Positions 279-13,065 of a stretch of 17,238 nucleotides of DNA are shown here, piece by piece. Numbering within the stretch: the first letter of the stretch is position 1; the number at the start of each line of letters is the position of its first letter. Location of the stretch: the IMG/VR virus record IMGVR_UViG_2675903661_000016; one strand, given 5' to 3'. Source of the stretch: a virus. Taxonomy: Duplodnaviria > Heunggongvirae > Uroviricota > Caudoviricetes. Below the pieces are notes generated by a model that worked only from the letters and a program-made list of their open reading frames with translations, was not told where the DNA came from and ran no database searches. Made by a program: the position numbers and the translations under genes.

Positions 279-355
279 TGGACCGCCATCGAGGACTCGA
301 ACCCCGCGCAGCCAGCTTCGAAGGCTGGCGCTCTATCCCGATGAGCTAATGGCGG
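279..355 (-). tRNA. tRNA-Arg, anticodon UCG (phage-encoded, argO-like)
   Basis: Reverse complement folds as a 77-nt cloverleaf: acceptor CCGCCAT/ATGGCGG, D-arm GCTC-ATCGGGATA-GAGC, anticodon stem CCAGC/GCTGG with loop CTTCGAA, T-arm CGGGG-TTCGAGT-CCTCG, discriminator T, encoded CCA. Position 1 is C (C1-G72). Confidence 0.75.
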
Positions 356-364
356 TATGTGATA

Positions 365-440
365 TGGTGGCCCTTGCTGGATTTGAACCAGCGACCTGGC
401 GATTATGAGTCGCTCGCTCTCACCACTGAGCTAAAGGGCC
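365..440 (-). tRNA. tRNA-Ile2-like, anticodon CAU (ileX/ileZ-like; Met cannot be excluded from sequence alone)
   Basis: Reverse complement GGCCCTTTAGCTCAGTGGTGAGAGCGAGCGACTCATAATCGCCAGGTCGCTGGTTCAAATCCAGCAAGGGCCACCA: 76 nt, acceptor GGCCCTT/AAGGGCC, anticodon loop CTCATAA, T-loop TTCAAAT, encoded CCA. Close to the recalled E. coli ileX sequence. Confidence 0.8.
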
Positions 441-1987: not shown

Positions 1988-2701
1988 TTAACGTACTCTG
2001 ACAGTATTAATTTCAAAATCATTAATATTTCCGCTATTAAATATAACGAATTTCTTACCCCCACTCCTGTATGATTTCGATAACACCAGACGATCATCAT
2101 AGCGCGCAATAATGTAATACCATACATTCTCATAGTGGACCGCCTGATATTCCCTCTTAAACTGTGGTTTGTACCAACCGGCAATAAGAGAGAATGCCCA
2201 GAAATAAATCATAAACCCAGCCATCATGAACTCAATTCGGTGATGGCGAATAACAGACATTTCCGAAAAACATTTGACTGAAACAAGTCTTCTTCCAGAC
2301 CTGACAAAAAGCGTGATTGCAAAGGCAGCAAGAACGCAGAAAATCAGTACATCTGGCTCAACATGCTGATGAATTACAGAAAACTCCAGAACAGGTGGAA
2401 TAAAAAGCAGCAATATCGCGAGAAAAAGCCGGATAAAACTCAAATTTTGTATATTGCGCTTTTGTTTTATGCCCAAAAAGAAAACAATACCAACTCCCCA
2501 TCCAATAAGGAATATAACAATAACTGTCACAGCATAAAACAAACTTCGTGCTACATCATCGACACCAGCCCCGACAACCCACCATGGAAAGCCATAGTAA
2601 AATGAAGTACCCCATCCATAGAAATAAGCGCTCCCCCATCCGAGACAGCCCATATAAGCAACAAAAAGTGAAGAGTTTCTGAGCAGAGCACTGTCATCCA
2701 T
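1988..2701 (-). CDS. Multi-pass inner-membrane protein of unknown function (AT-rich moron in the late leader)
   Basis: 237-aa ORF starting at ATG 2701; at least four hydrophobic helices with aromatic/Gly-rich segments (GWGSAYFYGWG, FLIGWGVGIVFFLG) and a soluble C-terminal tail. Clearly lower GC than flanking phage genes. Confidence 0.6.
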   Translation of the reverse strand: MDDSALLRNSSLFVAYMGCLGWGSAYFYGWGTSFYYGFPWWVVGAGVDDVARSLFYAVTVIVIFLIGWGVGIVFFLGIKQKRNIQNLSFIRLFLAILLLFIPPVLEFSVIHQHVEPDVLIFCVLAAFAITLFVRSGRRLVSVKCFSEMSVIRHHRIEFMMAGFMIYFWAFSLIAGWYKPQFKREYQAVHYENVWYYIIARYDDRLVLSKSYRSGGKKFVIFNSGNINDFEINTVRVR

Positions 2702-2842
2702 AGTAACACCATTAACAACTCAAAAATATCAACACACATTACATAACAAATTGGATTCCATGCAGTCAAGGGGCGTCATTGATGGAGAAAGTATTGGCAC
2801 AATCGTCATCACGTTTAATGTCTATGCCATTTTTTGGGGGGT

Positions 2843-2867
2843 AAAAAACCCGCTCGGTCACGGGTTT
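2843..2867 (-). terminator. tR'-like intrinsic terminator downstream of the late promoter
   Basis: Minus strand AAACCCG-TGACCGAG-CGGGTTT followed by TTT, about 55 nt downstream of the predicted -10 element. Confidence 0.45.
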
Positions 2868-2918
2868 TAGTGGCTTTGCCATCACGTATAATAACGGCAA
2901 AATATCAGATTTACACGA

Positions 2919-2947
2919 AATATATGCCTTTTTATCTACTTTTGCAA
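2919..2947 (-). promoter_or_regulatory. pR'-like late promoter immediately downstream of the Q-like gene
   Basis: Minus strand TTGCAA (-35, 2947..2942), 17-nt spacer, TATATT (-10, 2924..2919). Further -10-like AT-rich elements (GATATT, ATTATA) lie just downstream, as at a Q-engagement pause site. Confidence 0.45.
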
Positions 2948-2954
2948 TACTTTG

Positions 2955-3620
2955 CTATGAAAATGCCGCCTTTTGTTTTGAACGTGTTCCCTCCACCAAC
3001 AATAAAGCTTCACTATCCAGCCGATGAAAAATGTGTTTCATTGCAACCCAGTGACCAGTAAATGTCTTGGACCAGTTTTTGGTTGTTACTCCCACCAGTA
3101 ACGCCAGTTCCTGGTATTCGTAACCTTCCCCACCAAAAAGCTCAGCTTTTACCGCCTGCGCCGCCAACCAGATCAACGTCTTCAGGCGCACCAGAGTTTT
3201 TCCTGCAATTTTTCTGGTACCGGATTGAGCATTAAATTCAGTCCACGCCCACTGCGTTATCGCGATCTGATGCTCCCAGCAAATGCTACCGCTGTAACAC
3301 CACAGCAGCCAGGCTTTATGATGTTCTTCAAGAGACAGAACGGCGCGTCGCCATGATGATGTCGAAAACTCAACCGGACTGACCAGGGCAATTGATGAGC
3401 CTTTCGCCAGTGATTGTTTACCCGGGATCGGGGGATTATCCCGCGTGATCATTTTTCCGGTTACCTCATCGCGGTAACGAATTTTTTTGCGTCTGTAACG
3501 CCCTGTATCGAACAGGGCATTTTCCTGCCAGACTTCCAGCTGGCCTTTTGTCGACCCACTAAGATCCGCAGTGGCAATCATGAGTTGCTCACGAACAAAC
3601 TGTAAATACTGGTTATTCAT
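2955..3620 (-). CDS. Putative late-gene antitermination protein (Q-like), assigned by position
   Basis: 221 aa from ATG 3620 with AGGTGG SD; start overlaps the rusA stop (ATGAATAA). Sits immediately upstream of the promoter-terminator unit, as Q does in lambdoid phages. No CxxC zinc-finger pairs, so it is not a lambda/82-type Q by motif; the call is contextual. Confidence 0.4.
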   Translation of the reverse strand: MNNQYLQFVREQLMIATADLSGSTKGQLEVWQENALFDTGRYRRKKIRYRDEVTGKMITRDNPPIPGKQSLAKGSSIALVSPVEFSTSSWRRAVLSLEEHHKAWLLWCYSGSICWEHQIAITQWAWTEFNAQSGTRKIAGKTLVRLKTLIWLAAQAVKAELFGGEGYEYQELALLVGVTTKNWSKTFTGHWVAMKHIFHRLDSEALLLVEGTRSKQKAAFS

Positions 3621-5479: not shown

Positions 5480-5635
5480 TTACTTCTCAGATTCGTAGTC
5501 TACGAAGACAGCGACCTCCGTCTGGCCGGTTCGGATTCGTACCTCGCAGAGGTCTTTCCTCGTTACCAGTGCCGTCACAACAACGGTAATACAGATGACG
5601 ATCAGGGCGATTAACATCGCCTTTTGCTGCTTCAT
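5480..5635 (-). CDS. hok: Hok/Gef-family type I toxin (HokD/RelF-like small membrane toxin)
   Basis: 51-aa product MKQQKAMLIALIVICITVVVTALVTRKDLCEVRIRTGQTEVAVFVDYESEK is near-identical in pattern to recalled HokD. AAGGAG SD upstream. An in-frame upstream ATG at 5692 gives a 70-aa ORF overlapping the leader. Confidence 0.8.
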   Translation of the reverse strand: MKQQKAMLIALIVICITVVVTALVTRKDLCEVRIRTGQTEVAVFVDYESEK

Positions 5636-5689
5636 AGCCTGCTTCTCCTTGCCTTTCGGCACGTAAGAGGCTAACCTACGTTTGTGAAG

Positions 5690-5770
5690 CATAGATTGGG
5701 CCTCAGATTAATGTTAAGCGTCCTGCAAGACGCGTAATGTTAACTGGGGCTTTTCTCTGTCTGCCTTACG
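5690..5770 (+). ncRNA. Putative Sok-like antisense RNA region opposite the hok leader (boundaries not determinable by eye)
   Basis: Inferred from hok/sok family organisation: antisense RNA is encoded opposite the 5' leader and upstream-ORF start. A 9-bp inverted repeat CTGTCTGCC/GGCAGACAG (5757-5794) lies in this leader. Confidence 0.2.
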
Positions 5771-5925
5771 GCGGCATGCCCGAGGCAGACAGCCTCAAGC
5801 ACCCGCAGCAATTCTACTTAACTCTTCTTTCCCCGCAAACCGTTTTTATCCCCAGCGGCAAATCGAATACACCACCAGCGCCACCGCCATTGCAATTCCT
5901 ACCGTTATGAACGCTTCAGGCCAGG

Positions 5926-11362: not shown

Positions 11363-11391
11363 TTTACATTAATGAACAGCAGGTACATTAT
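11363..11391 (+). promoter_or_regulatory. Putative early (pL-like) promoter/operator for the ydfA-dicF-dicB-like operon
   Basis: TTTACA (11363-11368), 17-nt spacer, CATTAT (11386-11391); flanked by GTACATT/AGTACT motifs also present in the switch region. Confidence 0.3.
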
Positions 11392-11566: not shown

Positions 11567-11719
11567 ATGGATACGCTCAATCTTGGCAACAACGAATCTC
11601 TGGTATGCGGAGTATTCCCCAACCAGGACGGCACGTTTACCGCGATGACGTATACCAGAAGCAAAACGTTTAAAACTGAAGCTGGCGCGCGTCGCTGGTT
11701 AGCAAGAAACTCTGACTAA
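11567..11719 (+). CDS. Small 50-aa protein, YdfA-like (first gene of the early operon)
   Basis: Not in the ORF track (below size cutoff). ATG 11567 with GAGG SD about 10 nt upstream; product MDTLNLGNNESLVCGVFPNQDGTFTAMTYTRSKTFKTEAGARRWLARNSD. Same size and position as ydfA in Qin. Confidence 0.45.
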   Translation: MDTLNLGNNESLVCGVFPNQDGTFTAMTYTRSKTFKTEAGARRWLARNSD

Positions 11720-11832
11720 TGAAGTCTGGTAGTTAAGGAATCCTCCACGGGGAGAACTGGTGCACACGCGCCGGACACAAGCAAGCATCCGGCATGCTCT
11801 TTAACAATCTGGATATCCATAACAGTAACAAT

Positions 11833-12324
11833 CTACAGATTGCCGTTCAGTTTTCTGGCCAACTCCTCAATAGATGGAGGCGATACATAATCCGGATTTT
11901 TATTCATAAGAAACTGATTTTCACAGTAGAGGCACCTGCTTTTATGAAAAAACTCATGTTCTCTAACCGGGAATGGTTGAAGTATCGATACTATCTTTTG
12001 TCCAAAACATTTTGGACAAAGATGCATGATTATGCTGCCGCCGTTCACGGTTACCTCCTTCGAGTACACAAAAGTTCCCGACTCAAGTTGGTTAAGGATA
12101 TAACCTTCCGTCTGAGCCTCAAAGTTTTCAAATTCTGCAATTTTAGCTTTGAGAGAAGCATTTATTTCTTGATAAGTGCTCACCAGCTCAACGAGAGACA
12201 CGCATTCGTGCTGAATAGATGCAAGCTTTGAGTTCAGTTCACCAATAGCCGCATTTACTTCAGCTTGAGTTTTTGCCTCGTTCATTAGTTTTGTAATCTG
12301 AGCGGTTTCACGAATAGCCGTCAT
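11833..12324 (-). CDS. Hypothetical coiled-coil protein with C-terminal Cys4 zinc-ribbon-like motif; antisense AT-rich moron inside the early operon
   Basis: ORF 11833..12390 (TTG); start taken at ATG 12324 (163 aa), ATG 12285 also possible. Long heptad-like helical region, then CPKC...CLYC. About 40 percent GC, markedly below neighbours. Confidence 0.5.
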   Translation of the reverse strand: MTAIRETAQITKLMNEAKTQAEVNAAIGELNSKLASIQHECVSLVELVSTYQEINASLKAKIAEFENFEAQTEGYILNQLESGTFVYSKEVTVNGGSIIMHLCPKCFGQKIVSILQPFPVREHEFFHKSRCLYCENQFLMNKNPDYVSPPSIEELARKLNGNL

Positions 12325-12660
12325 TGCTGCCGTTAATTCAGCGATCACATTCAATACTCTTATTGTTGTTGGGGATATCCAGATTAACAAGCTCCTTGTT
12401 GTTGGGGAATAACAGGTCCACCTCGCCTGACGTGGTTAAAAGCAGGCACACAACACGAAAGCGCTCGGCGAAGTTAGTCTCTCTGTATATGTCGTCGTTA
12501 AATGTAATTCGATCGTGCGCTTCCGGTTGTGGCAATCCGCGAAATGGCGCGGCGGTAAGTATGGCTGGGGCTTCCTCCATTGCTCCAGAAAATGCACCGG
12601 GTTGTCAGGTTGACCATACGCCTGAGTGACAACACCGCCACAACAACCTCTGTTATCACT

Positions 12661-12700
12661 TTTCTGGTGATTCGGCGGAAATGGATATCCGCCATTTTTA
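12661..12700 (+). ncRNA. dicF: DicF-like small RNA (compact variant) ending in an intrinsic terminator
   Basis: TTTCTGGTGATTC-GGCGGA-AATGGATA-TCCGCC-ATTTTTAAAG. The 5' decamer TTTCTGGTGA and the GGCGG/CCGCC arms plus T-tract match recalled DicF, and the downstream AAAGTGTATTTTGTGATGCGGTGAATGCGG resembles the recalled dicF-dicB spacer. The central part of DicF appears absent. Confidence 0.45.
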
Positions 12701-12876
12701 AAGTGTATTTTGTGATGCGGTGAATGCGGCTAAGCGCACGCGGAACAGTTAAAACAAGCGGTCTTTTACTGGCGTAACAGACATCAACTAACAATCCGGC
12801 GTTAATTGTTAACTGGTTAACGTCACCTGGAGGCACCAGGCACCACATCACAAAATTCATTGTTGAGGACGCGATA

Positions 12877-13065
12877 ATGGAAACGTCACTACCAAACGTT
12901 AATACGTCTGAAGGGTGTTTTAATATTGGTATTCTGCTCAGTAACCGGGAGTTTACTGAGGACGCCATCAGGATGAGAAAATATGAGCCTTATCTTCTCA
13001 ATGATAATTCCATACTCTCCAGAATTGCCCTTCTTGAACTTGGCATTTTCGGAGGGCAGCAGTGA
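12877..13065 (+). CDS. dicB: DicB-like cell-division inhibitor (62 aa)
   Basis: GAGGA SD before ATG 12877. Product METSLPNVNTSEGCFNIGILLSNREFTEDAIRMRK... versus recalled DicB MKTLLPNVNTSEGCFEIGVTISNPVFTEDAINKRK...; same length and position after dicF. Confidence 0.55.
   Translation: METSLPNVNTSEGCFNIGILLSNREFTEDAIRMRKYEPYLLNDNSILSRIALLELGIFGGQQ

Follow-up and report, generated by a model that had tools for sequence, protein, structure and literature searches.

A predicted Rip1-family gene behind a sieB-type promoter region in a Qin-type lambdoid prophage of Escherichia coli

The stretch of DNA analysed in this work (the window; 17,238 nucleotides (nt), IMG/VR record IMGVR_UViG_2675903661_000016) matches, with 100% identity, the Qin/DicB-type lambdoid prophage that adjoins ompW in E. 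coli STEC435. Our subject is the gene which lies in opposite orientation between the ydfA-like gene and dicB of this prophage and which we refer to as the rip1-like gene. An earlier note on this DNA had described a single opposite-strand gene at this place, and the list of open reading frames (ORFs) does contain a lone ORF on the minus strand at 11833..12390. Position 12390 is a mechanical TTG start only, whereas the start assigned by PGAP and RefSeq is a GTG at 12348. Since the N-terminus that follows from the PGAP start (MIAEL...) is kept in nearly all homologues, we place the start at 12348 rather than at 12390 or at an internal ATG. The ORF is real, but its product, put at 163-185 amino acids (aa) in the earlier note, is 171 aa long. 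The gene and the element preceding it are:

11833..12348, minus strand: rip1-like coding sequence (CDS), 171 aa, GTG start, RefSeq WP_033885209.1, labelled 'hypothetical protein'.
12357..12361, minus strand: Shine-Dalgarno-like AAGAG, 8 nt before the GTG, read off the sequence.

The Shine-Dalgarno-like element is mostly kept among the homologous loci in the form (A/C/U)(A/U)GAG. With a GC content of 41.3% (48.4% for the window) the CDS is no compositional outlier in the immunity/early region, because the dicA-like gene, dicB and ydfD are at 43.8%, 42.3% and 42.9%, respectively. The contrast of about 40 versus about 52 percent reported earlier is overstated and weak; ydfA is at 49.0% and the flanking spacers are at 48-49.5%.

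The AlphaFold2 model of the protein (predicted local distance difference test score, pLDDT, of 90.9) shows two helices (residues 2-24 and 28-79) ahead of a beta domain (84-150), with a further short helix at 160-167, which bears out the earlier description of a long coiled coil followed by a Cys4 motif. The cysteines of this motif, CPKC...CLYC, are C111, C114, C139 and C142; they are invariant in an alignment of 30 homologues, as are L42, G91 and Y95, and the insert between the two Cys pairs is variable and differs widely among the homologues.

Family libraries contribute little to the identification of this protein. Searches of Pfam and NCBIfam gave only coiled-coil noise and no match to DNA-binding families, and PADLOC-DB v2 (2023), a library which predates Rip1, contained no family matching at E<=10. 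The protein belongs over its full length to phrog_1244 of PHROGs (E=1.9e-57), but as this family is without functional annotation the match gives no mechanism. A search of the PDB with the single sequence (phmmer), on the other hand, found one entry, 9oox, named 'ring interacting pore 1 (Rip1)' (E=1.1e-7), with residues 14-150 of the query aligned to residues 28-159 of the 164 of the 9oox chain and both Cys pairs in register. A profile made from the 30 homologues raised this match to E=5.3e-23, the runner-up being at E=0.13, and extended it to positions 6-156 of 169 against residues 16-160 of the chain (145 of 164 residues). Comparison of the AlphaFold2 model with the PDB by Foldseek returned chains 9oox_M and 9oox_L alone (E of about 5e-7, probability 1.00) and nothing else below E=0.1; for 9oox_M the values were E=5.2e-7, a target-normalised TM score of 0.74 and a root mean square deviation of 3.3 over 120 aligned columns. 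This entry shows, by cryo-EM, the Rip1 protein of phage HK446 bound to the small terminase of phage T6, and the Rip1 chain is identical to HK446_037. The search by structure and database suggested in the earlier note thus succeeded with Foldseek and with the profile, both of which find Rip1, and failed with PADLOC.

The same family profile matches three phage proteins, namely HkaP of HK630 (2.5e-32), gp30 of JBD30 (6e-29) and HK446_037 (3e-26). Likewise, tblastn with the window protein reaches HkaP of HK620 and HK630 as well as the Pseudomonas Mu-like phages DMS3, JBD30 and D3112 (about 30% identity), in which the homologue adjoins the large terminase gene, the site that the review cited below gives for the original Rip1. 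The window protein shares with the Rip1 proteins the motifs Y-x-L/M-H/N, G-x-x-VY, LCxxC, S/T-ILQ and CxxC, its CxxC pairs lining up with those of HK446, HkaP and JBD30 in what is predicted to be a zinc-ribbon-like fold, and the hydrophobic moment of its 25 N-terminal residues (0.27-0.40, a crude measure) lies within the range of the HK446 and JBD30 proteins. Its pairwise identities are 31.8% with JBD30 gp30, 29.6% with HkaP and 24.5% with HK446 Rip1 as compared to 30.7% between HK446 Rip1 and JBD30 gp30, so that the window protein represents a fourth branch of about equal depth. Relatives are numerous: a full scan of 1.84 billion cluster representatives yielded 3261 at E<=1e-3, nearly all of 145-180 aa and matched end to end, and the 118 found in a large protein collection are all from Enterobacterales, all 'hypothetical' and all without a Pfam domain. 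We consider it almost certain that the window protein is a homologue of Rip1. Judged by its sequence, the gene is a divergent, uncharacterised and unannotated member of this known family, and the slot that it occupies is likewise of a known type.

A second line of evidence comes from the DNA in front of the gene, where about 100 nt 5' of the CDS are more conserved across genera than the CDS itself. Three elements can be distinguished in this region:

12418..12447, minus strand: conserved module GCCTG-CTTTTAACCAC-G-TCAGGC-GAG-GTGG, common to the sieB promoter regions of lambda, P22 and HK446.
12394..12407, minus strand: direct repeat CCCCAACAACAA(GG), first copy; it lies within the loop of a weak hairpin, was found by repeat search and is kept in 16 of 17 homologous loci.
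12363..12386, minus strand: predicted promoter core and mRNA 5' end, from alignment to the annotated P22 sieB promoter and RNA start.

The distal 30 nt (12418-12447) recur 5' of rip1 of HK446 and of hkaP. When the region upstream of HK446 rip1 was used in a BLAST search, it matched positions 34396-34481 of lambda (NC_001416), directly 5' of sieB, which in this phage occupies 34482-35036 on the plus strand, antisense to the pL transcript, between orf28/ral and N. It also matched positions 29652-29736 of P22 (NC_002371.2), which carry the annotations 'sieB promoter' and 'sieB RNA start site'. The window, lambda, P22 and HK446 have in common the pattern GCCTG..CTTTT..CCAC.TCAGGC...GTGG followed by two C/A-rich repeats, the repeat equivalent to that of the window being ACCCCTACAG in P22, lambda and HK446. 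By sequence comparison, then, lambda and P22 have the homologue of this upstream region at their sieB promoters, and the matches therefore indicate that genes of the rip1 family replace sieB behind the sieB promoter.

Alignment to P22 predicts a -10-like TAATCT at 12381-12386 and transcription would start at about 12374-12376, at the second CCCCAACAACAA repeat (12363-12374), giving a predicted leader of about 25 nt that carries the Shine-Dalgarno-like AAGAG. Since the strand of the rip1-like gene yielded no promoter in a sigma-70 consensus scan at 9/12, the assignment of this promoter rests on the homology to P22. Rfam gave nothing for the upstream region at the gathering threshold or at E<=1. 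The C/A-rich repeats had raised the idea of AgvB or another known prophage small RNA (sRNA), which we discarded as AgvB is located at the moron site of the late region and its Rfam model was negative. The CAACAACA repeats might conceivably be a target of GcvB.

The position of the gene within the prophage is in keeping with that of a cargo gene. Reading from the left, Q, rusA, DUF968, hok/sok and, further on, P, an O-like gene, ydaT and a cro-like gene, all on the minus strand, are followed by the dicA-like repressor gene, ydfA (DUF1391), the rip1-like gene (minus), dicB, ydfD, an exonuclease gene, xis and int. The direct neighbours and the nearest promoter-like site are:

11567-11719, plus strand: DUF1391/ydfA-like gene, left neighbour of the rip1-like gene.
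12877-13065, plus strand: dicB, right neighbour of the rip1-like gene.
11363..11391, plus strand: TTTACA-17-CATTAT, a promoter-like site in the spacer that separates ydfA from the dicA-like repressor gene, found by consensus scan only.

The order dicA-ydfA...dicB is the same in Qin of E. coli K-12, and we could confirm that ydfB/ydfC occupy the ydfA-dicB interval there, as had been proposed. The interval is empty in one O157:H7 strain, holds an antisense gene of 65 aa in one ST131 strain and an antisense 'ECs_2282 zinc-binding' gene together with ydfC in another strain; a variant of the window protein with 65% identity is encoded at the same site, again antisense, in E. coli. The ydfA-dicB interval is a variable cargo site, and the moron-type position claimed for the gene is thus borne out by comparison of related prophages. 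Rac-type relatives of the prophage carry sieB.

Relatives of the gene are found in other surroundings as well. The gene of PhiR49_1 adjoins cI, that of a Salmonella prophage lies just 3' of cro and that of Citrobacter between xis and the repressor gene, each antisense to the nearby early genes; rip1 of HK446 and hkaP of HK620/HK630 are antisense between N and cIII, and JBD30 gp30 is antisense among late genes. The site at 11363-11391 is a candidate promoter of the early operon, whose transcripts would run antisense through the rip1-like gene. The mutually exclusive expression suggested in the earlier note would fit this anatomy, because in all contexts examined the relatives run antisense to the operon around them.

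What might the gene do? Rip1 is a prophage protein which is harmless by itself, as stated in section 5 of a 2026 review (PMC13434031, citing Patel et al., Nature 651:1060, 2026). The same section describes that 12 copies of it assemble round a ring of the infecting phage, either its 11-mer small terminase or its portal, with the C-terminal half touching the ring and the N-terminal amphipathic helices forming a membrane pore that leads to premature cell death (PMC13434031). The window gene resembles the Rip1 genes (HK446_037, PDB 9oox; JBD30 gp30) in being a prophage-borne single-gene system for a protein of similar size (171 versus 164 aa), in combining a helical N-terminal half with a C-terminal Cys4 beta domain that match Rip1 over the full length in profile and fold, and in its antisense orientation to the surrounding operon; with HK446 it also shares the promoter module and a slot of the early-left-operon type. 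It differs from them in that its product, at 24-32% identity, forms a separate deep branch with an extra C-terminal tail containing a short helix, in that it is located between ydfA and dicB and not between N and cIII as in HK446 or beside the terminase genes as in JBD30, and in that its subfamily has CCCCAACAACAA repeats of its own and an inverted repeat that brackets the CDS.

Two further systems are instructive. SieB of lambda and P22 (PF14163) is expressed in the lysogen as an abortive-infection gene, antisense in the early-left operon and from a homologous promoter region, but it is an unrelated membrane protein of different fold: the window protein has no match to PF14163 at E<=1, whereas a true SieB encoded behind the same module matches at 3.2e-25. 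Also, P22 sieB has an internal start, Esc, to which nothing evident in the window gene corresponds. HkaP of HK620, HK629 and HK630 is a homologue of about 30% identity which sits in the sieB slot behind the same module but belongs to a different subfamily and is annotated as 'unknown'; a literature search for hkaP returned unrelated acronyms only and we found no functional data.

By analogy with Rip1 we propose that the rip1-like gene probably encodes a ring-triggered, pore-forming abortive-infection defence. In the lysogen the gene would be expressed constitutively at a low level from its sieB-type promoter and the protein would be harmless alone. Upon infection by a heterologous phage, when the late genes of the latter are expressed, the C-terminal zinc-ribbon beta domain would bind the small terminase or portal ring, which would then template a ring of Rip1-like subunits, and insertion of the N-terminal amphipathic helices into the inner membrane would create a pore, so that the cell dies or lyses with its phage progeny still unfinished. 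Induction of the resident prophage would send early transcription of the ydfA-dicB region antisense through the gene and would be expected to lower its expression. In this way the prophage could plausibly avoid harm to itself, a purpose like that of the Esc protection annotated for P22 sieB. The earlier note had regarded the gene as a probable moron for exclusion or abortive infection. The homology to Rip1, the homology of the promoter region to that of sieB and the variable cargo site speak for this view; the determinant is, however, not of a new kind, as the note had suggested, since the Rip1 family was described in 2026.

Several points weigh against this assignment. The identity to the characterised proteins is just 24-32%, so that the trigger specificity and even the activity could differ. 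The N-terminal helix is just moderately amphipathic, the clade-specific C-terminal extension (about residues 152-171, with the helix at 160-167) is missing in HK446 Rip1, and the promoter is assigned by homology only, its -10 and -35 elements being poor. One may ask, then, whether a homologue of Rip1 could bind packaging rings and yet act otherwise, either by blocking terminase or portal without forming a pore or by serving its own prophage in lysis timing, packaging control or re-infection by its own progeny. The deep divergence (24-32% identity), the C-terminal extension of the clade, the variable insert between the Cys pairs and the room for functional diversification in a family of 3261 cluster representatives at E<=1e-3 would all be compatible with such a role. 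Against it stand the conservation of the architecture from end to end, which extends to the helical N-terminal half, the pore-forming part of Rip1, and the use of an expression cassette which otherwise serves the abortive-infection gene sieB and HK446 rip1. We therefore regard a different mode of action as unlikely, even though it fares best among the alternatives.

Far less can be said for a regulator, the alternative named in the earlier note, in which the coiled coil would dimerise and the Cys4 zinc ribbon bind DNA or RNA, possibly the CCCCAACAACAA repeats in its own leader. Zinc ribbons of the Cys4 type are often nucleic-acid binders, and two direct repeats on the 5' side together with an inverted copy on the 3' side flank the CDS and travel with it. 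But the significant matches in sequence and fold are to Rip1 only, DNA-binding families being unmatched, and the upstream repeats correspond to segments of the sieB promoter region, behind which unrelated cargo without a zinc ribbon is found as well; we hold this reading to be very improbable. That the gene is a decaying, non-functional passenger of a cryptic prophage is equally hard to believe, for although prophages of the Qin type are often defective and the cassette is not intact everywhere (IS5 disrupts it in locus L028, a deletion in locus L030), the ratio of nonsynonymous to synonymous substitution rates (dN/dS) is 0.14-0.31, also in pairs with synonymous sites near saturation, the full-length gene is present in 646 genomes and in the inducible ECOR phages PhiR49_1 and PhiR29, and its four cysteines are invariant.

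The range of 0.14-0.31 holds for all pairs among five copies, and the gene is under purifying selection. The CDS occurs in essentially full length in 646 of 5426 complete E. coli genomes (about 12%), among them O157:H7 and O55:H7 strains, and is annotated as 'hypothetical protein' in all carriers; the proteins of the ECOR-derived PhiR49_1 and PhiR29 are 92% identical to that of the window. Thus about one in eight complete E. coli genomes contains a gene to which Pfam, NCBIfam and PADLOC are blind, and its assignment to Rip1 offers a concrete and testable function, that of a pore-forming abortive-infection sensor of phage packaging rings, which would be of consequence for phage therapy and for the typing of pathogenic E. 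coli by phages.

Taken by itself, the upstream region is more widespread than the gene, being present in 1364 E. coli genomes as compared to 646 for the CDS. The same region precedes other cargo in CPS-53-like E. coli prophages: one of these (L028) encodes a protein of 148 aa without family match (2595-3041, with IS5 3' of the cargo), and another a protein of 170 aa with a signal-peptide-like N-terminus and a weak match to the lysozyme inhibitor LprI (2595-3107). The notion of a leader specific to the rip1-like gene is ruled out by the occurrence of the module in front of unrelated cargo. Scanning for the exact distal pattern GCCTG(N)CTTTTNNCCACNTCAGGC-NNN-GTGG located the module, which is not in Rfam, in at least 120 viral contigs (loci L031-L150). 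The first ORFs 3' of it form over 30 groups unrelated to one another, of which 14 recur; a true SieB (PF14163, 3e-25) is among them, as are membrane proteins, a small zinc-ribbon protein and 11 members of the Rip1 family from several subfamilies. Of 79 loci assessed by a crude ORF-based measure, 42 have the cassette between two opposite-strand flanks and only 3 between two co-directional ones.

Because only exact matches to the pattern were collected, the module is in part invariant in this set by construction, and stems inside it, which never vary, are therefore silent on structure. The hairpin which directly follows the module (12387-12417 of the window, minus strand) is different in this respect, for its stem changes in sequence from locus to locus (45 distinct stem pairs) without loss of pairing, the mean contiguous stem being 5.9 as compared to 4.5 in shuffles. 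Its loop is C/A-rich (CCCCAACAACA, CCCCTACAG, CTCACACA, CCACAGTCA), and short versions of the hairpin have the Shine-Dalgarno sequence within the 3' half of the stem. The mapped start of the P22 sieB RNA falls inside the last hairpin, so that transcripts from the cassette's own promoter would have a free ribosome-binding site and read-through transcripts a masked one. Folding in silico agrees with this, as the ribosome-binding region is paired in read-through RNAs and unpaired in RNAs that begin at the mapped start. We hypothesize from these models that the hairpin may insulate the cargo from outside transcription.

More generally, and with somewhat less than even confidence, we propose that the sieB promoter region could be a portable structured module, composed of about 30-35 near-invariant nt (30 nt in the window) and one or two covarying hairpins with C/A-rich loops, which would serve dozens of unrelated, mostly antisense cargoes (among them SieB, at least two Rip1 subfamilies and many unknowns) and insulate toxic defence genes, the Rip1 clade being one such cargo with a trigger specificity of its own. 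The module may then be a marker of accessory or defence genes expressed in the lysogen and, if the proposal is true, a sequence handle for mining new ones. The rip1 genes and sieB appear as interchangeable cargoes of one conserved promoter cassette, and for this reason the position that the earlier note called the classic one for exclusion genes would be a good place for defence genes. The shared cassette offers a DNA motif by which more of these might be found, and it is this observation on the promoter module that we consider most worth following up.

The rip1-like CDS is further set off by structured elements at its borders:

11806..11831, strand not assigned: left arm of an imperfect inverted repeat, 26 nt, found by repeat search.
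12360..12385, strand not assigned: right arm of this repeat, 81% complementary to the left arm and overlapping the predicted -10 element and mRNA 5' end.
11770..11793, minus strand: GC-rich hairpin GCCGGA-N12-TCCGGC without a U tract, 3' of the stop codon.

The 26-nt inverted repeat, whose palindromic core is GGATATCC, brackets the CDS exactly and also flanks the gene in the PhiR49_1, Salmonella and Citrobacter loci; among the loci compared, it is missing at those of HK446, HK630 and JBD30. Three explanations of the repeat were considered. An invertible cassette is at odds with the assembled genomes, in which no flipped orientation occurs and of which 647 cover at least 80% of the flanked 801-nt region as compared to 646 for the CDS. 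Pairing of the arms between the 5' and 3' ends of the mRNA finds no support, the changes in the arms across genera not being compensatory. Terminal repeats of a mobile element are unlikely in view of a conservation that runs past both arms. A canonical terminator (AAGCGTCC-N4-GGGCGCTTTTTT) takes the place of the hairpin at 11770-11793 in most of the homologous cassettes.

On its right-hand side the cargo site is bordered by a conserved flank:

12661..12699, plus strand: shortened DicF-like element with a terminator-like hairpin, from alignment to DicF of K-12 Qin.

The DicF-like sRNA of the earlier note is recovered here in part: an element is present at the homologous place, but it is a shortened variant of 39 nt (TTTCTGGTGATTCGGCGGAAATGGATATCCGCCATTTTT), in which about 20 nt of K-12 DicF are missing and which the Rfam DicF model does not match at 12661-12699, although K-12 DicF is recognised at the homologous place. 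The terminator scan placed a hairpin at 12674-12693, inside the element, and the same short form is found in an O157:H7 prophage. Just 5' of dicB and overlapping its start, positions 12692-12909 (plus strand) match STnc100, a family of prophage sRNAs, below the threshold (33 bits versus a gathering score of 47, E=7e-5); a 2026 preprint links this family with the PasD sRNAs.

Two observations concern the left part of the window. Two tRNA genes, for tRNA-Arg and tRNA-Ile according to RefSeq, are located at 282-440 (minus strand), 3' of the Q antiterminator region; a tRNA pair near Q is the layout of Shiga toxin (Stx)-converting phages, the toxin genes themselves being absent from the window. Finally, a toxin-antitoxin locus of the hok/sok type occupies 5480-5804 (minus strand), where Rfam recognises sok with 117.7 bits at 5630-5804 and where a gene of the Hok/Gef family (hokD) is annotated in the identical RefSeq record.

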